IMG/VR virus record: IMGVR_UViG_3300032069_000017
Location: 1 to 51,251 of that record
DNA: 51,251 bases
DNA from: a virus
Taxonomy: Duplodnaviria; Caudoviricetes
Direction: 5' to 3' (one strand)
Shown: positions 18,983 through 41,785 of the stretch, in pieces
How positions within the stretch are numbered: the stretch's first letter is position 1
How the letters are laid out: each line of letters begins with the position of its first letter
Notes under the pieces: generated by a model
Seen by the model: only the letters and a program-made list of their open reading frames with translations
Told to the model about the DNA's origin: nothing
Databases searched by the model: none
Program-made: the position numbers and the translations under genes

Positions 18983-19983
18983 ATGAAGTGTCCTAAATGT
19001 GGTTATCCTAGAATAAAATATAATACTAAGAAACAAATTACTAAGTCTAGAGAAGGAAAGAAAATATCTAATAAAATAGACTTTAAGGCAAAATGTAAAA
19101 GGTGTGGATGGGAAGGAATTATTAATGGCTAAACTGAATTTACAGAAACTTAGGAAAGAATGCTCTAATATTCCTATACTACATCATCATAATATTGAAT
19201 TCAGTCATGGTAAGAATAAGCATAAGGAGAAATAAAATGACTAAGTTTCTATATGATTTAGTTATAGAAGGATGTATAAGCTTTAATGAATATAAAAGAA
19301 TAAAGGGGGAAAAGAGTAAATGATAGCTATTATTATCTTTATACTATTATGCTTAATACTATTAGGATTAGCAATATATGCTACTATAGAATGGTGAAAT
19401 AATGAACTACATAGTATTATATATTTTACTGGGTTGGGCTTTATTTCTTATGGTAGGATTCTTCTATAGCTTACTTATTAAGCCTAAGAAACCTATTAGT
19501 ACTAAGAAACTTAATAATAAACCTTTAAAGAAGAACTATAATAAAGAATATAATGCTTATGCTATCTGTAGGGCTATGCAAAAGAAGTATAGATGGACAG
19601 AAGAAAAGTATAAAAGGTGTGTTAAGAAAGTATTAAGTAGAAGATAATAAGTATGATGTTTAAGACTCCGGATGGCACTTATTCTTATCCAGAAATAGTT
19701 GCTTTAAGATGTATAATAACTTATTCACAGTATATAGTCTTTAATGGATATGAAGTACTAGAACATGAAAAGAGGGATACGGTAGTAGAAGAATGGCTTG
19801 CTGGAATAATTAAACTAGCTATGAATACTAAAGAAGCTGAGAATATGTTAAGAAAATATAAAGAGAGGGATGACTATGTTAGATAGTTTATTTTGGAATA
19901 TTATACTTCTATTCTGGTTATTAATAGCCTTCATAGTAATGGCAGGAATAGTTTTAAGTTGGCTAACTAAGAAGGGATATTAA

Positions 19984-21262: not shown

Positions 21263-21823
21263 GTGAGAAATTTGGTGAAGCTAGGAAAAGAAAATCCAAA
21301 TTATAAACATGGAAGATATATTAAAAATAACTGTAAAACTTGTAATAAACCAATTGACCCAAGGAGTACTTTTTGTCATAAATGTAGACCAAATAGAGGT
21401 CATCCATTATCTCTTGAAGTTAAGAAAAAAATAGGTCTAGCATCCAAATCTAAGTTTACTAATGAATATAAAGAAAAGCATTATAGAAGTAAATTTAGAA
21501 ATACAAAACACCGAGCAATTAATGGATATATTTTAGTTAAAAATTATGACCACCCAAATAGAGATTCACATAATAATATTCTTGAACATGTTCTTATTAT
21601 GAGCCAGTCTCTTAGAAGACCTTTAATTAAAGGAGAAGTTATTCACCATATTAATTTTGATAGAGCAGATAATAATATTCTAAATCTTTATTTATATAAA
21701 AATCGTTCTGAACATATTCATAAAGCACAAGGTTCTTTATTTTCTCTTGTAAAAGAATTATTAAGGAGAAATATAATTTCCTTTGAGGATGGTAAATATA
21801 AAATTAGGAGGAGAAGTCCTTGA
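21263..21823 (+). CDS. HNH homing endonuclease (HNH_3 type, with NUMOD-like N-terminus)
   Basis: ENPNYKHG, ILEHVLIM…EVIHHINFDRADNNILNLYL. Confidence 0.85.
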   Translation: MRNLVKLGKENPNYKHGRYIKNNCKTCNKPIDPRSTFCHKCRPNRGHPLSLEVKKKIGLASKSKFTNEYKEKHYRSKFRNTKHRAINGYILVKNYDHPNRDSHNNILEHVLIMSQSLRRPLIKGEVIHHINFDRADNNILNLYLYKNRSEHIHKAQGSLFSLVKELLRRNIISFEDGKYKIRRRSP

Positions 21824-27596: not shown

Positions 27597-28118
27597 ATGA
27601 GTAAAAGAAAAGATTTTGAGCAATGGAAGATTGAAGTGGTCTATAAACAACAAGATGGTATATGTGTTAAGTGCGGTAATCCACTAATAGCTGGATTCCA
27701 TAGACACCATAAGGACGGAGATAATACTAATAATTCTATAGAAAACCTAGAACTACTTTGTATGACTTGCCACGGTTCAGAACAGTGGAAAACTTTGCAG
27801 CAACAGAAAGAGAAGCATATAGGAGAACTTAATACTCTTATACAGAAGGGAATAGAAGGTGGAGTAGCTGGAGCAGTACTAGATAAACTATTAGATGCTA
27901 TTAAACTAGCTCTTAGTCTAGAAAGGCAAGTTAATGGTTTAGAAGTAGAAGAAGCTCCAGCGTCAGTAAAGACAGAGTATTCACAGGTTATAGTAGAATG
28001 GAATCTTAAGGAATGGGAACGTGGAATAAAAGAAGGATTGCTTAAAGGTCTGGATATTAGTCTATCTAAAATTAATGAGGATATGGATAGTAAGGTAACT
28101 AAAAAGAAGGTTAAATAA
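27597..28118 (+). CDS. HNH endonuclease domain plus helical C-terminus
   Basis: CVKCG…HHKDGDNTNNSIENLELLCMTCH. Confidence 0.8.
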   Translation: MSKRKDFEQWKIEVVYKQQDGICVKCGNPLIAGFHRHHKDGDNTNNSIENLELLCMTCHGSEQWKTLQQQKEKHIGELNTLIQKGIEGGVAGAVLDKLLDAIKLALSLERQVNGLEVEEAPASVKTEYSQVIVEWNLKEWERGIKEGLLKGLDISLSKINEDMDSKVTKKKVK

Positions 28119-29242
28119 TGGGGAGACCTAAAGGTTCTAAAAATAAGGACACTGAAAACTTAGAGAATAAACCTGTAGAGGTTAAGTTAGATATGGAACA
28201 TTTAAAAGAAGAGAAGCCAACTGATGAGAAGACTATAGTCAATCATGAAGAAGATGTTGTTGATAGTAATGCAGAAGTGCATAGGCTAGAAGACTTACAA
28301 GGTATTGGTCCTAAGACAGCAGAGAAACTTAGAGAATTGGGATATACTTTAGTTGGTATAGCTACTGGTAGAGCAGATGAAATAGCAGCAGAAATGAAGA
28401 TTAGCTTTGTACAGGCTAAGACATGGGTAATGGCTGCACAGGAAGCTTTACTAAAGACTATGAAGATGAAGACAGCTAATGAAAGCGATAAGGATAAGAA
28501 GATTAAGCAACAGTTTATTAAAACTGGAAGCAATAGCTTTAACACTCTAATAGGTGGTGGCTTTCCAACTATGGCTACTACTGGATTAAGCGGTAGGTTC
28601 AGTACCGGTAAAACACAAGCATGCTTTGATGCTACAGTAGATTGCATAGGAAGGTTAAAGAGAAAAGTTGTATACATAGAGACTGAACCTAATACCTTTA
28701 GTCTAGATAGGCTTAAGCAGATAGCTAAAGCTAGAAAGCTAGACTGTAACTGGGATATGCTATATATATGTGAAGCGGACCAGATACCAACGGCTAAAGC
28801 ACAGTTCTTACAGTATAAGCTAGTGCAGAAAACACTAGAAGCTGGTGAAGATATAGGCTTAGTAATAGTGGATAGTTTTACTGCTAAGTTTAGACCCGGC
28901 TATAGTAGAAGGGAAATGCTACCGGTGAGGACTAGAGAGTTTACTGAACACTTCTTACTGATAGACTATCTGGCTAGTAAGTATAATGTGGCTTGGATAT
29001 TAACCTGCCAAGTAATAGGAGCACCAGACCCCGGTCAAAGCTTAGGTATTAAAATGAAGACTGGTGATAGTTTCTATCCCGTTGGTGGAGAATACCTACT
29101 ACATTCAGTAAATACTTGGGTAAGCCTGTTGCAAATAAAGACTGATTTATACGAAGCTATACTCTATGATAGTAGCTATCTACCAAGAAGTAAATGTGAA
29201 TTTATACTAACTTCAAATGGTCTAATGGACGGGGTAAAATAG
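28118..29242 (+). CDS. radA: RadA/Rad51-like recombinase
   Basis: N-terminal HhH (LQGIGPKTAEKL), Walker A GRFSTGKT, Walker B LVIVDS. Confidence 0.9.
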   Translation: MGRPKGSKNKDTENLENKPVEVKLDMEHLKEEKPTDEKTIVNHEEDVVDSNAEVHRLEDLQGIGPKTAEKLRELGYTLVGIATGRADEIAAEMKISFVQAKTWVMAAQEALLKTMKMKTANESDKDKKIKQQFIKTGSNSFNTLIGGGFPTMATTGLSGRFSTGKTQACFDATVDCIGRLKRKVVYIETEPNTFSLDRLKQIAKARKLDCNWDMLYICEADQIPTAKAQFLQYKLVQKTLEAGEDIGLVIVDSFTAKFRPGYSRREMLPVRTREFTEHFLLIDYLASKYNVAWILTCQVIGAPDPGQSLGIKMKTGDSFYPVGGEYLLHSVNTWVSLLQIKTDLYEAILYDSSYLPRSKCEFILTSNGLMDGVK

Positions 29243-29259: not shown

Positions 29260-29541
29260 ATGCCTAAAGTTTTTTGGTTTGATAACAAGGATATGGATAA
29301 GATGTATGGTAAATTTAGAATACTTAAAGGTAGTTATGTACAAGGTGCTTGCACGAAATGGAACGGTATGATTGTTATACATCTTAATACTGCAATAAGG
29401 ATATTAAGACATAGAACTTTAGGGACTATAGAAATATTAGGACATGAATATATACATTACTTAGCTGAAATAACTAGAGCTACAATAGTAGATAGGATAT
29501 TAGACTATATAAGTTATGGGTGGAAAAAAAGAAAAGAATAG
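29260..29541 (+). CDS. Small HExxH protein
   Basis: ILGHEYIHY. Confidence 0.5.
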   Translation: MPKVFWFDNKDMDKMYGKFRILKGSYVQGACTKWNGMIVIHLNTAIRILRHRTLGTIEILGHEYIHYLAEITRATIVDRILDYISYGWKKRKE

Positions 29542-30184
29542 TATAAAGGTGATTATAATTCCTCTTTATATTGATTCAAGAGAACCAGATGATATAGTAC
29601 GGTTACTTAAAAGAGAAAACTTAGCTATAGAAGTAAAAACTATACCTAGCGGGGACTACGTTTTTGGCGAAGTGGCTGTGGAGAGGAAAGCAATATTAGA
29701 CCTTATTAGTTCAGTAACTACTGGTGATAGGCATTTCTGGAACCAGTTAGAAACTATGAGAAACACCTATACTATACCAATACTACTCATAGAAGGACCA
29801 ATAAACCATAGGGACCGTATAGTTATGGGAATATTAACGACTGTAATTCTATTCTGTAAATACCAGACTATATTTAGCAAGGATAAAGAAGATACTGCCA
29901 AATGGATAGCAGACTTATTTACTAAGTATGGAGTAGGTAAGACTGGTAGGATTCCGCCACCAGCGGTTATTAGAGCAGCTACACCTAAACAAATAAAATG
30001 GGCTATGCTCCAGTGTATAAAGGGTATTGGTCCTAAAACTGCTAATAAGATACTAGAGGAAATACCAGATATATTTTCAGCATCTTATGACTATCATACT
30101 ATTAAAGCTAAATTAAGAAAAGTAAAAGGTTTAAGCCATATAGCAAGAGAACTATTAGTTGGAGTAAAAGCTAATGATATTTAA
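29516..30184 (+). CDS. Short XPF/ERCC4-family structure-specific nuclease
   Basis: IDSRE, GDY, VERK, IEG and C-terminal HhH (IKGIGPKTA). The true start is probably 29555/29558, after GGTGA. Confidence 0.9.
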   Translation: MGGKKEKNSIKVIIIPLYIDSREPDDIVRLLKRENLAIEVKTIPSGDYVFGEVAVERKAILDLISSVTTGDRHFWNQLETMRNTYTIPILLIEGPINHRDRIVMGILTTVILFCKYQTIFSKDKEDTAKWIADLFTKYGVGKTGRIPPPAVIRAATPKQIKWAMLQCIKGIGPKTANKILEEIPDIFSASYDYHTIKAKLRKVKGLSHIARELLVGVKANDI

Positions 30185-36155: not shown

Positions 36156-37025
36156 ATGTATGAAGTAAAAGATATAGAGAAAATGCATAAAGAGATGCTT
36201 TGGACTACTGTAAGAATAAAGGCAGAAAAGGCTTGGGGCAGCGGGACTGCAATATATTCTGGACAAGACAAAAATGGTGATTGGCATGTTTATATAATAA
36301 CCTGCTACCATGTTATAGCAGATAATATTAAGGTAGAGACTAAGTTTGATGCTAGAGTAGGCTATGATATTAAGAAGGAAACAAGGATACCAGCAGAAAT
36401 TGAATTTTTCTATTATGATAAGTTTAGTATATGTCAAGGAGTAAGCGGTAGTACAAAAGCTGATATTGTAGCCTATGATGCAGATGCTGATATTGCTGTA
36501 TTAAAGCTTAGAAAGAATGCCCCGGTAGAATGGATAGCTAGTATGTTCCCTAAAGGTAAAGAGTCTGAAGTACATGTATTTGATAACGTATGGGCTTGCG
36601 GCGCAGCTCTAGGACATGAACCAATAGCTACATACGGTATAATAAACTTTATGAATGAACTAATGATGGAAGAAGGTGGAGTAGAATACTGGATGTCCAG
36701 TGCGCAGATTATCTTTGGTAATAGTGGTGGAGCTATATTTAGGTATTCTAAAGAAAGAGATAGATATGAATACTTAGGTATTCCAGCTAGGATAAGCGTT
36801 AGCATAGCTGGGTTTATGCCTGACCCTATTACGCACATGGGATTCTTTGTACCTATAACTAGAGTGTATAAACTATTAGATGATAACTTCTATCAGTTTA
36901 TATATGATAAGGAATATACTATAGAACAATGTGAGAAACTTAGAGAAGAATATAAGAAGGAACAAGAAAAACTATTAATGGCACGGTTCGGTGGTACTCC
37001 TAAAAGGGAACAGAAAACACGCTAA
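36156..37025 (+). CDS. Trypsin-like serine protease
   Basis: GSG, ITCYHV, DIAVL and GNSGG triad motifs. Confidence 0.9.
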   Translation: MYEVKDIEKMHKEMLWTTVRIKAEKAWGSGTAIYSGQDKNGDWHVYIITCYHVIADNIKVETKFDARVGYDIKKETRIPAEIEFFYYDKFSICQGVSGSTKADIVAYDADADIAVLKLRKNAPVEWIASMFPKGKESEVHVFDNVWACGAALGHEPIATYGIINFMNELMMEEGGVEYWMSSAQIIFGNSGGAIFRYSKERDRYEYLGIPARISVSIAGFMPDPITHMGFFVPITRVYKLLDDNFYQFIYDKEYTIEQCEKLREEYKKEQEKLLMARFGGTPKREQKTR

Positions 37026-37064: not shown

Positions 37065-37286
37065 ATGGGGCTCTCCGATAACAAATGCGATTCGTGTAGT
37101 GAAGAAGTAGGTTACTTATTTCCTATAGCTATAATTGATGAACTACCTAGTGGCGGTATGAAGATGGTTATTAAATACTACTGTTGGGATTGTTATGATA
37201 TTATAACAGATACAGCTAAAAGTGAATTAGATGAGAAAGATGATGAAGAAGATGAAGATGAAGATAAAGACCAAGAAGATGAGTAA
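37065..37286 (+). CDS. Zn-finger protein with acidic tail
   Basis: CDSC…CWDC followed by a poly-D/E tail. Confidence 0.6.
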   Translation: MGLSDNKCDSCSEEVGYLFPIAIIDELPSGGMKMVIKYYCWDCYDIITDTAKSELDEKDDEEDEDEDKDQEDE

Positions 37287-37426: not shown

Positions 37427-38587
37427 ATGCAATTTAATAAGAAGCTCCTAGAAGCTAAACCAGAGAGTGAAGAAGTAAAGGAATTTATAAAGCGTACTAG
37501 TACAGAGTATCATCCATTTGTTGACAAGTGGATAAAGAACTATGACAAAGCACTAAAGGAAGGCGAAATTGAAATAGGTGCTTTACGTGGTCAGACTGTG
37601 GCTGATGCTGTTGCCGCTGGCGGTGGAATGCAGGTTTATGCTACACTAGAAATCTTTAACGCTGTCATTAGAGGTTTTACTAGATATATGGATGACAGTT
37701 TCGTACGTAAGTATGTAACTGATTCCGTTATCTTTAAGATACCTAAGACAGAATATAGAGAACTAGTTGGTAGTATAAGTGCTGGAGAACTACCACATAC
37801 AGAGAAAATGATTGACTATGCTACTGTTGATTTGTCTACTCCAGAATCAGAACGTGGTGGCAAGGTAACTTGGACACGTTCATTGCTAGAGGATGTAACC
37901 TTTGACGTTCAGGCAGAAATGGCTGAAGGTCTAGGTCATGCTATAGCATATAAGATTACGAATGATATACTTACTGCTTTACTAGCAGTTCCAGTTTTGG
38001 CTATGCCTAAGAATGCTAAGGTAACTATTAGTTCTCCAATTACATGGGACCAGTTCCTAGATGTGATTGGGGCAGTAGATACCGGTGTAACAGACTATAC
38101 TATTACTATGACTGCTGGTGCTGACAATGCGGTTCCAAGCGACATTGGCAAGATGGTTAAGGACGACGGTGTTGAAATTGGTCCACTAGTATCATTTACT
38201 CGTGGGTCAAATCCAGCGGTATGGGTGGTTGCAACTAGAGCAACAGTAGCTAATGCTAGTGCTATGACTATTACTGGTGGAACAGGTTCAGGTACTTCCG
38301 CCTCAAGTGTAAAGAACGCCGGTGTGAGGACTTATGGTCCGGCTGACTTCTGTTTGGTAAGTCCAGATGTTTACTGGCAACTGTTGAACATCATACAGAT
38401 GACTAACGTCCTATATGAAGGTTCTACAGACCCAGTAAATAAAGGAGTTATTAAACTAGCTTTAGGCACAAGTATTGTTAAGCAGTCATTGCTTCCAGCA
38501 GGAACTGTAATTGCTCTTAACAGTGAAAAGGCTATAGCTCTGGTTACTAGACGAGCATTAAAGATAGAACCAGTATTATTCCCAGTA
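37427..38587 (+). CDS. Major capsid protein (HK97 fold), exon 1
   Basis: E-loop/P-domain pattern (FKIPK…AGELP…TRSLLED…FDV…LGHAIA); ends …EPVLFPV at the BHB cut site. Confidence 0.85.
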
Positions 38588-38992
38588 AATAGAGGTTATA
38601 TAGTATGATATGTCCAGTATGTAAGAAGAATTTTATTCCAGACAAATATCATCCTTATGCTACAAGATGTTCTGCTAAATGCAGTAATATCTTTAATAGG
38701 TTAATTCATAATTATCAATTAGAACGTAGGCATAAGGTTAAGAAAGAGATATTTGAGTTACTCGGTAATAAATGTGTTAAATGCGGATATACCGGTGTAG
38801 CTCTTCAAGTGGACCACATTAATGGTGGTGGAAAGAAGGAAATTACTGAATACCGAATTAAACAAAGTTCTCTTGTGTATTGGATTCATATCTTGGCAAA
38901 GATTAAGGCTGGTAGTAAGGACTACCAACTTCTTTGTGCAAACCATAATTGGGAGAAATATTATGGCAATATATAATAACTTCTATCTGGAA
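38588..38992 (+). other. 405-nt bulge-helix-bulge (BHB) intron in the capsid mRNA
   Basis: CCAG/CTGG central helix, TAA and AAT bulges and an 11-bp inner stem. Canonical cuts rejoin the exons in frame. Confidence 0.85.
38605..38976 (+). CDS. Intron-encoded HNH endonuclease
   Basis: CVKCG…LQVDHINGGG…YQLLCANHN. Confidence 0.85.
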   Translation: MICPVCKKNFIPDKYHPYATRCSAKCSNIFNRLIHNYQLERRHKVKKEIFELLGNKCVKCGYTGVALQVDHINGGGKKEITEYRIKQSSLVYWIHILAKIKAGSKDYQLLCANHNWEKYYGNI

Positions 38993-39079
38993 TGGAATGA
39001 ATATGGTTTTATTGGAACTGTTCGTTATGGTGTAACAGCCATATATCCGGGAGCTATTCAACTAGGACAAATAGCATAG
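38993..39079 (+). CDS. Major capsid protein, exon 2
   Basis: WNEYGFIGTVRYGVTAIYPGAIQLGQIA, a typical HK97-fold C-terminus (RYG…P.AI). Confidence 0.85.
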   Translation, partial: WNEYGFIGTVRYGVTAIYPGAIQLGQIA

Positions 39080-39090
39080 GTTGGCTAATA

Positions 39091-39810
39091 GTGGAATCAA
39101 CCACTCAACCTTCTCCTTTTTTATACTATTTTTCCGTCAGCAAACTCGCTCATTTTGATTTTTGTAATAAGCGTTGTAAGTTAGAAGTATTTAACCAAGT
39201 TGCTGAACCTAAGGTTGGTATGGGTTCTGTAGCTAAAGGTAATAAAATGCATTGGTTATATAGTTATTCATATAAGGACTTTGATAGGATAAGAGTAAGG
39301 TATGAACTTAGAAACTTAGCTACTTTATATAGAGGAAGATTAGGATTTGAGAAGAAGATAGAAGTAGGAAATAAAATAGTAATTATAGTTAGGGGAATGT
39401 ATGATGACCTACGAATTTTAAGGGACACTAAGACTAACAGTAAATATACTAGTTTAGTAGAAGTAAAGACCACTAGTAAAAAGTATATGTGGACCAGAGA
39501 AGTTAAGGCAGCAGTAAGACAGCTTCAATTGTATATGTGGTTACTAAAAGAAATATTAGAAAAACTTAATTATCCTTTATGGAAACGGTCTTATGTAGAA
39601 GTCTATAGTCAGAAGGGTGGTTCACTATTAAGGGTTATACCAGTAAAGTATAACTATGACATAGAAGATTGGATACGATATGTAGTAAAGGTATTCCAAG
39701 GATTAGAACCAGCATCTATACCACCATATAAGTTCTGTAAGTTGTGTCCGGTAAACGTTAAAACAAACTGTGATTGGTATAGGATAAGAAAGGGATATTA
39801 TGATAAGTAA
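39091..39810 (+). CDS. Cas4-like PD-(D/E)xK nuclease
   Basis: SVSKL…FC, VEVKT, QLQLY and C-terminal CKLC…C. Confidence 0.75.
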   Translation: MESTTQPSPFLYYFSVSKLAHFDFCNKRCKLEVFNQVAEPKVGMGSVAKGNKMHWLYSYSYKDFDRIRVRYELRNLATLYRGRLGFEKKIEVGNKIVIIVRGMYDDLRILRDTKTNSKYTSLVEVKTTSKKYMWTREVKAAVRQLQLYMWLLKEILEKLNYPLWKRSYVEVYSQKGGSLLRVIPVKYNYDIEDWIRYVVKVFQGLEPASIPPYKFCKLCPVNVKTNCDWYRIRKGYYDK

Positions 39811-40171
39811 AAAGAGAAAGTATAGGGATATAAAGTTTACTAGATTAGTAGTTAATATAGATATTATTGGTTGTTCCGCCCATTTAAGAAATAATAATAA
39901 GACTATAGGTTCTTGTAAATGGGAGATTCAGAATAAAGGGGATATGTATATATCAGATTTTGGTATAGAAGATAAGTATCAAGGTAAAGGTTATGGTAAT
40001 TTCTTAGCTAGAATAGTAATAGACTTAGCTAAGTTATATCATCTTAAGACTATCTATTTAATAGATGGGGCTATTCCAGAAGGGTTCTGGCAACAACTAG
40101 GATTTAAGACTAAGTTTCTATATAAGAATAAGGTTAAAGTTGATACCGGTAATGTGGAACTGAAGTTATAA
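39800..40171 (+). CDS. GNAT acetyltransferase
   Basis: YQGKGYG motif A and FWQQLGF. Confidence 0.85.
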   Translation: MISKKRKYRDIKFTRLVVNIDIIGCSAHLRNNNKTIGSCKWEIQNKGDMYISDFGIEDKYQGKGYGNFLARIVIDLAKLYHLKTIYLIDGAIPEGFWQQLGFKTKFLYKNKVKVDTGNVELKL

Positions 40172-40521
40172 TGAACAAAAAAGAAAGAAAGAAAGAGTAT
40201 GAACGGTTATACTATTTAAAGAATAAAAAAGAAATTGATATTTATAGAAAAGATTGGTTAAAGAATATTAAGAAACAGAGGAGAAACGAAATTATTAGAT
40301 TACTTGGTAATAAGTGTATTATATGTGGGTATAAAGGACTAGCACTTCAGATAGACCATATAAATGGTGGTGGTCGTAGAGAATTTCTTAAATGTAGTAA
40401 ACGACCAGCGAGATATTATAAGAAAATTCTGGAAAGTATAAAAAGAAATGAAGGTAAGTATCAACTTTTATGTGCTAATTGTAATTGGGAGAAGAGGTAT
40501 AAGAATAATGAATATAATTGA
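40171..40521 (+). CDS. HNH endonuclease, paralogue of the intron HNH
   Basis: LLGNKCIICGY…LQIDHINGGG…YQLLCANCNWEK. Confidence 0.85.
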   Translation: MNKKERKKEYERLYYLKNKKEIDIYRKDWLKNIKKQRRNEIIRLLGNKCIICGYKGLALQIDHINGGGRREFLKCSKRPARYYKKILESIKRNEGKYQLLCANCNWEKRYKNNEYN

Positions 40522-41785
40522 ATTTTTTAAATATCTAACAAAGTTAGAACCAACACCAGACCAATGTAAATTTCTTCTTGATTGTGTAGATATAGATATT
40601 CATAAATTGCTTATATCAGCAGGCCGTCAATCGGGAAAAACACTATGTTCTGCAATAGCTGTCTTGTGGTATGTGTTTGAATATGATAAGCCTATTAAGA
40701 TAATATTAATATCAGCCCAGCAGAATATTCTATACCTTCACATGCTAGATATATTTAGGAAGTGTGGTGATGCTAGGTTTAAGAATATTAAACAGGGTGG
40801 ACAGATATTAGAAGAAACACCTTGGAATATAGTACCATTAAAGGGATTTACTACACAAAGAGGAACTATAGTATATGTTAGAGGGTCTACGGATAAACAG
40901 ATTAGGGGAATACCAGCAGATATAGTAGTATTAGATGAATGCTGTGAAATAAAGAATGATATAATCCTTACTTCTATGGGTAATATTACCGGTCCAATAT
41001 CTAAGTTTATTGTTCTATCAACACCGCATGTAGATACTAGTCTATTTGTTAAGTGGGCGACAACGCCAGAGGATAAGTTTAAGATTCATTTATGGAACTC
41101 TGAAGGTTTACCTTGGCATTCTAAAGTAATAGATGATACTAAGAAGAAGGAATATAGTAGAGAGAAGTATGCAGTAGAAATGCTGGGTAGACCACCTACA
41201 AAAGCTGAAAGGGCATTCTTTCCTAGTAAGCATATTGAGAAGTGCGTATTACCAGTAGAACCTATAAGGGAAGGTGGTCCTCATAGTAGATTAGAAATAG
41301 GTATAGATTGGGGATTTGAAGCTCCAACATTCCTTATAGTTACAGAGAGGATAGGAACTACACAGAGAAAGATACTGTTTACTAAGAAGTGGACTGGTAA
41401 ACCTATAGAGACTATAGGACCAGAAATACTTAATATTATAGCAGACTTTAAGCCTTACCTAGTTAAAGCTGATAGTAAACCACCAGAATATAAACAATGG
41501 TTTGAGAACCATGCTAGACATGTAGTTATATTTATTGACTGCGCGTTAGGGCATAAGGAGCAAATGCTTGGTCAATTACAGAGAATGATAAGGGAACATA
41601 GACTAATAATACCGCAGACATTACCAAATGTTGTAGATATAATAATGGCATTAAGGAAGTACAGAAGGAAGATGATTAAAGGTGATGACCCGGTAGATGC
41701 TCTTTCTCTTAGTATTTATGAGCCAAGCAGTCCTCTAGAAGGGGGTTCATATGGGCGGGTTTATTTCCCAGAGAATAAAGAATAA
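40508..41785 (+). CDS. terL: Terminase large subunit
   Basis: AGRQSGKT Walker A, VVLDE Walker B, STP, nuclease GIDWG and DDPVDA. Likely start is ATG 40508. Confidence 0.92.
   Translation: MNIIEFFKYLTKLEPTPDQCKFLLDCVDIDIHKLLISAGRQSGKTLCSAIAVLWYVFEYDKPIKIILISAQQNILYLHMLDIFRKCGDARFKNIKQGGQILEETPWNIVPLKGFTTQRGTIVYVRGSTDKQIRGIPADIVVLDECCEIKNDIILTSMGNITGPISKFIVLSTPHVDTSLFVKWATTPEDKFKIHLWNSEGLPWHSKVIDDTKKKEYSREKYAVEMLGRPPTKAERAFFPSKHIEKCVLPVEPIREGGPHSRLEIGIDWGFEAPTFLIVTERIGTTQRKILFTKKWTGKPIETIGPEILNIIADFKPYLVKADSKPPEYKQWFENHARHVVIFIDCALGHKEQMLGQLQRMIREHRLIIPQTLPNVVDIIMALRKYRRKMIKGDDPVDALSLSIYEPSSPLEGGSYGRVYFPENKE

Follow-up and report, generated by a model that had tools for sequence, protein, structure and literature searches.

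The capsid gene and its insert

The DNA analysed here, termed the window below, covers an entire virus record (IMG/VR record IMGVR_UViG_3300032069_000017; 51,251 bp; Duplodnaviria, Caudoviricetes) with direct terminal repeats, and probably represents an archaeal virus. Its major capsid protein gene lies on the + strand in two parts, exon 1 (37427-38587; 387 codons, ending in ...IEPVLFPV) and exon 2 (38993-39079; 28 codons beginning WNEYGFIGTVRYG..., followed by the stop codon at 39077-39079). They are separated by an insert of 405 nt (38588-38992, + strand), as indicated by the alignment of homologs and by intron-less DNA contigs. This insert is very probably an archaeal-type bulge-helix-bulge (BHB) intron in the mRNA of a viral HK97-fold capsid protein and belongs to a family of BHB introns, two members of which (those of the window and of the related locus L056) most likely carry a putative homing nuclease of HNH-like type, as judged from their sequences.

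If read without splicing, the capsid open reading frame (ORF; 37427-38608) encodes 393 aa ending in ...FPVNRGYIV at the stop codon 38606-38608, and the capsid reading frame reopens after the insert (WNEYGFIGTVRYGVTAIYPGAIQLGQIA) up to the end of exon 2. The 405-nt intron and the restored capsid protein of 415 aa proposed in the original prediction agree with the ORFs and with the codon counts of the two exons. The boundaries of the insert may slide by 1 nt (38587-38991) with the product unchanged. Although 405 nt is a multiple of three, the insert holds stops in the capsid frame, and an ORF of 123 aa (38605-38976, + strand) fills 372 of the 405 nt, which leaves a non-coding part of only 33 nt. 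An intein was rejected as an explanation, since this ORF lies in a different frame and the capsid frame contains stops.

The product of the interrupted gene was assigned as an HK97-fold major capsid protein from family and fold matches together with the head-module context, where the genes follow in the order protease, small acidic ORF, major capsid protein, nuclease, and large terminase (TerL). Exon 1 matches the Pfam family Phage_capsid (PF05065) with an E-value of 0.0018 and 18.1 bits, which is under the cut-off of 24.2; PHROG 267 ('major head protein') matches the capsid protein at 2.2e-5, and all of its ten best matches in the protein atlas belong to PF05065 clusters (top score 0.94). A Foldseek search with the model of the 84% identical capsid protein of locus L047, which has a pLDDT of only 62, retrieved the capsids of SU10, HRP29, and HK97 first (E 2e-3 to 4e-2, probability up to 1.0). 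A tblastn search of the capsid protein against 50,697 phage records gave no match. Exon 2 aligns with the C-termini of all uninterrupted homologs, and a comparison with the uninterrupted gene of L047 shows changes at 14 of its 84 nt and 3 of its 28 aa, corresponding to 8 synonymous versus 3 non-synonymous codon changes, while the last 28 codons of exon 1 exhibit the same pattern of change. Judged from this substitution pattern, exon 2 is a live coding sequence under coding constraint.

Across the insertion point, seven uninterrupted homologs encoded on viral contigs have the sequence ...EPVLFP(V/T)WNEYGFIGT(V/I)RYG.... The allele set comprised these seven homologs, one locus from a genome collection, and 42 metagenome loci; of the 51 loci in all, 11 stop short of the insertion point, and after removal of 13 exact duplicates (compared over 340 nt) there were 27 distinct alleles. 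As many as 23 of these are uninterrupted (...IEPVLFP(V/T/A)W(N/D)EYGFIG...) and encode the exon junction FPV|WNEY that had been postulated for the spliced product, while four are interrupted (L056, L057, L069 = L071, and L081); none of the homologs ends at FPV. The predicted joining of the two exons of the window gives ...IEPVLFPVWNEYGFIGTVRYG..., which is the reading of the uninterrupted homologs, and the peptide predicted across the joint is ...EPVLFPVWNEYGF....

The intron-less alleles that had been proposed as a check exist as DNA: two further metagenome runs from sediment (X2 and X4) contain contigs that belong to related viruses and have a joint that removes exactly 405 nt (a skip of 409 with 4 letters between, or of 406 with 1 letter between). 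Run X2 contains an intron-plus contig of 469 nt (38554-39022, including both intron ends, with 11 differences) in addition to an intron-less one. Because the contigs of X2 and X4 lack the insert and the longer X2 contig spans both of its ends, the insert is regarded as genuine, as optional, and as occurring in more than a single study, and a presence/absence polymorphism of the intron is seen in DNA. An assembly artefact or a chimera, which might be suspected in any record taken from a metagenome assembly, is scarcely conceivable: the whole stretch is found in one 12,332-nt contig of run X1 (maybe the source), the 469-nt contig across both junctions with its own differences comes from an independent study, and a homologous intron occupies the same site in L056, which stems from another sample.

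The same contigs bear on the possibility of a DNA-level element, whose terminal repeats would be the inverted 11-bp ends of the insert described below and whose excision products would be the intron-less contigs. Such an element would account for the inverted ends and for the occurrence of intron-less and intron-plus DNA side by side in run X2. However, the contigs without the intron have other bases at synonymous sites close by (GTG or CCT GTG versus CCA GTA) and are therefore other strains rather than excision products; moreover, there is no transposase, and the 4-bp pairing between exon and intron is not predicted by any terminal-repeat model. A related proposal is that ribosomes bypass the short inserts found at the same site in relatives, as exemplified by T4 gene 60, where the known hop covers 50 nt. 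Bypassing cannot create the Trp codon of L057 discussed below, and 405 nt is far beyond the known hop. An element of this kind, with or without bypassing, is considered highly improbable.

Bulge-helix-bulge motifs at a single codon

BHB motifs consist of two 3-nt bulges on opposite strands around a 4-bp helix and are located at exon-intron boundaries (PMC6379350). The 5' half of the motif in the window (38579-38599, + strand) is composed of the outer helix strand TTC (38579-81), the exonic central strand CCAG (38582-85), the bulge TAA (38586-88), and the inner helix strand ATAGAGGTTAT (38589-99), and the 3' half (38976-38996, + strand) of the inner helix strand ATAACTTCTAT (38976-86), the intronic central strand CTGG (38987-90), the bulge AAT (38991-93), and the outer helix strand GGA (38994-96). 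These junctions had been read correctly in the original prediction, whose strings and positions match the sequence base for base. The inner helix comprises 11 bp with one G-U pair, CCAG and CTGG are fully complementary, and the outer helix has 3 bp with one G-U pair. Archaeal splicing endonuclease cuts after the second base of each bulge. In this strict 3-4-3 motif such cuts would fall after 38587 and 38992 and give ...CCA GTA|TGG AAT..., which is precisely the junction of the homologs.

A scan of every position pair on both strands of the window at a distance of 20-2499 nt showed that only 11 of 247,903,280 pairs have an inner helix of at least 11 bp and an outer helix of at least 3 bp, and that just two of these contain at most one G-U pair. 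The other pair of this quality (19017-19428; 412 nt apart, inner helix of 11 bp) was judged to be a chance occurrence, as it extends over several small ORFs and would not join any recognisable sequences. In a permissive scan, the capsid intron ranks first among 853 ORF-joining candidates on the + strand, and the others look like chance. The fold of 38560-39020 is markedly stable (z -6.2), and its minimum free energy (MFE) structure recovers the 11-bp inner helix and the 3-nt bulge on the 5' side.

The BHB reading is strengthened by the four further interrupted alleles, each of which has strict BHB motifs of its own. All six inserts in the five interrupted alleles (the window and four relatives) show the 3-4-3 geometry, their canonical cuts restore the frame ...FPVW(N/D)EYGF..., and they sit at or next to the same codon in every case. 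L056 has an insert of 428 nt with the central helix CCTG/CAGG and an HNH ORF that is 60% identical in aa sequence to that of the window. The remaining inserts are short and devoid of ORFs, namely 31 nt in L057 (central helix CAGT/GCTG, cuts one nt further 3'), 22 nt in L081 (TTCC/GGAA, cuts two nt further 5', outer helix of 8 bp), and 30 nt followed seven bases downstream by 31 nt in L069 and its duplicate L071 (CCCG/CGGG, then GGGA/TTCT; L069 1350-1417, L071 1739-1806). The 22- and 31-nt inserts, among them the second of the L069 mini-introns, break the reading frame. In L057 the Trp codon, which is invariant in 17 of 17 aligned capsid sequences, is rebuilt across the joint as T|GG, and exon 2 of this allele lacks an in-frame start and is preceded by a stop at a distance of one codon; in run X4, the beginning of this intron is also seen as a loose sequence end at 38587. 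The unconstrained MFE structure of L081 is a textbook succession of helix, bulge, helix, bulge, and helix.

The long introns of the window and L056 are homologous, as indicated by their DNA alignment and by the similarity of their ORFs, and the central helices of these two sequences, which make up a small sample, covary: an exonic change from A to T at the third base of the Pro codon is matched by an intronic change from T to A (CCAG/CTGG versus CCTG/CAGG). The arms of the inner helix likewise differ on both sides and yet still pair. In our reading, the arms of the first L069 insert appear to resemble those of the window, with deletions that match each other in the two arms. The six inserts have six different central helices, all fully paired, and cuts exactly where the alignment demands them, which in sum is very hard to explain except by BHB-dependent RNA splicing.

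The codons on either side of the insertion point contain complementary sequences, TTCC in the Phe-Pro codons and GGAA in the Trp-Asn codons (38576-38585 and 38994-39000 in the window), and the same codons are present in all homologs. Since these flanks can pair, even an intron-less mRNA can fold into a small hairpin whose loop contains the insertion point, which may explain why this codon is a hotspot for introns. A free-standing HNH gene lies just downstream of the tandem mini-introns of L069 (L069 1639-2067).

Several observations weigh against splicing and against the BHB structure as drawn. A search of sequencing runs found no RNA run holding the stretch, and we thus only infer the splicing event. 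Loose BHB-like geometry is frequent in the AT-rich genome (2,632 pairs with an inner helix of at least 6 and an outer helix of at least 2 bp); the motif alone is therefore not diagnostic, and the case rests on the coincidence of its cuts with a junction fixed by homology. The canonical outer helix has merely the 3 bp mentioned, G-U pair included, and the MFE structure of the window slips this helix by one position, giving 7 bp outside (38576-82 / 38994-39000), a central helix of 3 bp, and a 3' bulge of 4 nt. In the nearest-neighbour model the canonical register lies 3.9 kcal/mol above the MFE and has an ensemble share of about 7e-4; we regard this difference as within what enzyme binding can pay, and it is still a caveat. 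The MFE structure of L057 takes another register as well, and the fold around the second L069 mini-intron is no better than shuffled sequences (z +0.22). The first L069 insert is in frame without a stop, and an in-frame ATG precedes exon 2 both in the window (38962, 10 codons upstream) and in L081 (inside the insert). The window, L081, and the first L069 insert would by themselves allow readings without splicing.

The upstream ATG codons are relevant for one of these readings, a split gene in which a free-standing HNH gene has landed in the capsid gene, leaving a truncated capsid protein of 393 aa, while the last 28 residues are lost or produced as a separate peptide from ATG 38962. The position of this codon and of its counterpart in L081 fits such a model, as does the fact that the relatives of the intron ORF are mostly free-standing genes (e.g. 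40171-40521 in the window, termed HNH2 below, the L069 gene mentioned above, and L014 2399-2785). It leaves unexplained, however, why the insert has BHB ends whose cuts coincide with the homology-defined junction, and why ORF-less, frame-breaking inserts of 22 and 31 nt with BHB motifs of their own occur at the same codon. In addition, exon 2 of L057 is without a start, and the invariant Trp codon of this allele exists only once T and GG are joined. We consider a split gene very unlikely.

Self-splicing introns have also to be taken into account, because introns of phage genes usually belong to group I and bear an HNH gene. Archaea do have group I introns (PMC6125680). The insert shows no sign of being a group I or group II intron with an HNH gene: no Rfam family matches anywhere in the window at gathering score (0 matches), none of the group I or II models matches 38400-39200 even at E<=10, and the ORF leaves only the 33 nt mentioned for a ribozyme. 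Group I introns carry a terminal G, whereas the insert ends in A in either register, and neither this terminal G nor the RF00028 core is present; inserts of 22-31 nt at the same site cannot be ribozymes at all. The Rfam result agrees with the BHB intron of the original prediction, and a self-splicing intron appears exceedingly unlikely.

Splicing by the BHB pathway would proceed as follows. In the pre-mRNA, the exonic CCAG of the Pro-Val codons would pair with the intronic CTGG, forming a 4-bp helix flanked by two 3-nt bulges, the 11-bp helix inside the intron, and a short exon-exon helix. The tRNA-splicing endonuclease EndA of the host would cut after the second base of each bulge, and the host ligase RtcB would join ...CCA GTA to TGG AAT... 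to yield the mRNA of the 415-aa capsid protein, the intron probably being circularised. The HNH-like nuclease would most likely act as a homing endonuclease and spread the intron into intron-less capsid alleles during co-infection, and the mini-introns of 22-31 nt may be deletion remnants that also destroy the target site of the nuclease. We infer from these sequences that host enzymes cleave and ligate the RNA, that the host is an archaeon, that the nuclease is active and drives homing, and how the mini-introns arose. Because the ends of the insert fold into the archaeal tRNA-splicing signal, capsid production probably needs host RNA splicing. In a wider sense, it seems likely that one lineage of tailed viruses infecting archaea of sediment and peat (possibly Bathyarchaeia-like Thermoproteota) depends on EndA and RtcB of the host to splice its capsid mRNA, and that the hotspot has repeatedly been colonised by BHB introns, some of them HNH-mobile, others ORF-less remnants of 22-31 nt that maybe protect the allele from the nuclease. 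BHB introns would then be mobile elements of protein genes and viruses as well, and virion output would hang on an exploitable step of host RNA processing.

The intron ORF, the virus, and its host

The HNH ORF named in the original prediction is recovered as HNH-like by profile matches, alignment, and model, while its assignment stays below Pfam thresholds. The 123-aa product matches PHROG 2255, 1271, 4234, and 3106 ('HNH endonuclease') with E-values from 3e-12, the best, to 2e-4. An alignment of 52 sequences shows D70, H71, C57, C111, and N115 as invariant and N113 as near-invariant residues, the last Cys of the second Cys pair being replaced by His in the window copy. The AlphaFold2 (AF2) model (pLDDT 89.7) contains strands at 68-71 and 107-110 and a subsequent helix at 112-121, and it is on this strand-strand-helix core, as expected for HNH enzymes, that the catalytic D-H, the Asn, and the Cys pairs are predicted to lie. 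Less favourable to the HNH assignment are the Pfam search, which gave no match at E<=0.01 for the intron ORF, and the Foldseek search, in which ranks 1-4 and 7-9 are HNH enzymes, both nickases and nucleases (4h9d, T5 SciA, Cap5, Cas5-HNH, and the retron Ec78 complex) at E-values of 0.48-3.5 only. A sequence profile search against the PDB with the HNH-like protein gave nothing significant. Within an alignment of the intron ORFs of the window and L056, HNH2 of the window, and the free-standing HNH protein of L069 (A3), Endonuclease_7 was found at 0.0047 on HNH2 and HNH at 0.013 on one other member, both under the Pfam cut-off. Among 95 relatives of the intron ORF, Pfam domains of HNH type are absent (one relative is recorded with PF07460, the other 94 with no domain), and one of the relatives carries a source name from an Asgard archaeon. 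We call the intron ORF HNH-like and a predicted nuclease, which is most likely a putative homing endonuclease.

The ATG of the intron ORF overlaps the stop codon of the unspliced capsid frame (ATGA, 38605-38608), and a GAGGT motif common to the window and L056 is located 11-12 nt upstream of it, in the window inside the 11-bp helix. Both features suggest that the ORF may be translated either together with the capsid frame, by translational coupling on the unspliced RNA, or from the intron after its excision. Relatives of the HNH protein occur at 12 viral loci (L009-L020), all of which were scanned for an enclosing BHB and nine of them also for an ORF-joining BHB (L011, L012, and L017 were omitted, since their rows are identical to L010 and L016). 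No further HNH-bearing BHB intron was found among the 12 loci; the gene of L014, the best candidate, is free-standing between two tail genes with starts of their own.

The head module around the capsid gene consists of a trypsin-like protease (36156-37025), the small acidic ORF preceding the capsid gene (37065-37286), which has an Asp/Glu-rich low-complexity C-terminal tail, a PD-(D/E)XK nuclease (39091-39810), and a T4-type large terminase (40448-41785). A GNAT-like ORF (39800-40171) and HNH2 (40171-40521), which is 48% identical to the intron ORF, are located between the genes for the PD-(D/E)XK nuclease and the terminase. Because the 84% identical relatives L047 and L048 have the terminase gene directly after the nuclease gene and lack this pair, the segment 39800-40521 looks like an insertion. 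Two more HNH-type ORFs with Pfam HNH_3 or HNH matches near threshold are encoded at 21263-21823 and 27597-28118, the latter ending where the radA gene starts (28118), so that the 51-kb genome contains four HNH-type genes, intron ORF counted.

The replication and repair genes are of an archaeal/eukaryotic kind, in line with an archaeal affinity of the virus, and include RadA (28118-29242; Rad51 and HhH domains), a nearby 222-aa nuclease with ERCC4 and HhH domains (29516-30184), a family B polymerase, and UDG. RadA and the ERCC4/HhH nuclease could, as a speculation, serve recombination-dependent homing of the intron. A RadA search yielded 118 proteins and gave no host call; one relative (P0101, 291 aa, 78% identical over one third of the query) carries LAGLIDADG domains and may be an intein- or nuclease-interrupted RadA of a related virus. 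No tRNA was found in the window, and neither an EndA domain nor RtcB among the proteins of the virus.

The enzymes would then come from the host, which is likely an archaeon as indicated by capsid sequences linked to metagenome-assembled genomes (MAGs) and by the EndA and RtcB genes of these MAGs. A frameshifted capsid fragment of 340 nt (L022 3001-3340 = G001:C2:122239-122590), 93% identical in aa sequence to the capsid protein of L006, sits on a contig of 742 kb that bears the title Candidatus Bathyarchaeota archaeon. An ABCE1/RLI gene lies about 2 kb from this fragment, and there are no further viral genes up to a distance of 3 kb. A full capsid gene is present on a contig of 4 kb in the bin of a MAG with the title Nitrososphaeria archaeon. 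Both MAGs contain RtcB, and each has two EndA-domain genes (182-189 aa), in keeping with the two-subunit enzyme described as broad in specificity (PMC6379350). The extent of these links, one decayed fragment in one MAG and one binned contig of 4 kb, counts against a firm host assignment, as does the failure of spacer-length matches (32-37 nt) as host evidence, since 0 of 6 checked lie in CRISPR or repeat arrays. A DNA search with 20 kb against 401 genomes of the class of G001 gave matches in 15 genomes, including the known capsid fragment, several of which fall on the acidic low-complexity ORF 37065-37286; most of the short spurious matches to archaeal genomes stem from its Asp/Glu-rich tail. 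Capsid relatives in 43 of the 401 genomes were dismissed as a host clue, as they are, apart from G001, distant and uninformative HK97-type matches (E 1e-4 to 4e-9).

Relation to known introns

If the proposed splicing is true, a protein-spliced archaeal intron acts as a mobile element in mRNA, and late viral gene expression is tied to the tRNA-splicing enzymes of the host, a host RNA-processing pathway that would be exploitable by hosts or by rival viruses. The occupation of one hotspot by no fewer than five different introns among the relatives would be part of this significance. The inserts of 22, 31, and 405 nt would provide natural frame-reporting substrates for the specificity of EndA on mRNA and a way to study splicing alongside coupled transcription and translation, and in uncultured viruses the presence of a BHB intron could indicate an archaeal host from the sequence alone.

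Introns in the cbf5 pre-mRNA of Crenarchaeota were reportedly described by Watanabe in 2002. BHB introns occur in tRNA and rRNA, and in pre-mRNA only cbf5 is named in PMC6379350 and PMC2738675. As described in the latter, the cbf5 introns are 16-44 nt long, of BHB type, and cut by the tRNA-splicing endonuclease (Yokobori 2009, PMC2738675); they are too short for an ORF, and the authors state there that an ORF-bearing version in a protein gene would need to be found, which the capsid intron, if confirmed as such, would supply. The likeness to cbf5, as far as described, lies in the BHB within a protein-coding mRNA and in the shortness shared with the 22-31-nt introns of L057, L081, and L069. The difference from the cbf5 case as described is that a cellular housekeeping gene is affected there, whereas a viral structural gene with two nuclease-bearing alleles and several introns at one hotspot is affected here.

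The nucleases of archaeal rRNA BHB introns typically belong to the LAGLIDADG family, e.g. I-DmoI. That these introns often carry homing endonucleases is stated in PMC2738675 and PMC8598171, and the exclusively LAGLIDADG ORFs reported in PMC6125680 belong to archaeal group I introns rather than BHB introns. With the rRNA introns, as portrayed in these sources, the capsid introns share an intron-borne nuclease of homing type, a presence/absence polymorphism among strains, and ORF-less deletion derivatives; they differ in residing in a viral protein gene instead of a stable RNA gene and in having a nuclease of HNH-like type, which is not known to have been associated with BHB introns before. A full-text literature search, with subscription journals and supplements outside its scope, found neither a BHB intron in a viral protein gene nor an HNH protein in a BHB intron, and tRNA genes are the only ones for which introns are mentioned in a survey of tailed viruses of archaea (PMC8651126).

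In a crenarchaeal rudivirus, putative introns of 12 bp have been noted in protein genes (Peng et al., as cited in PMC2738675). These inserts resemble the mini-introns in being short, in lying in protein genes of an archaeal virus, and in being suspected introns; as far as that citation goes, however, they keep the frame and come without proof of splicing, and neither a BHB nor an ORF is mentioned, whereas the capsid inserts break the frame or carry stops, each with a strict BHB. The group I introns that carry HNH or GIY-YIG nucleases in phage genes are ribozymes that splice themselves and measure at least 250 nt. The capsid intron would be, like them, a mobile HNH intron in an essential gene of a tailed virus and is polymorphic among relatives, but it has no ribozyme core and would depend entirely on the proteins of its host.

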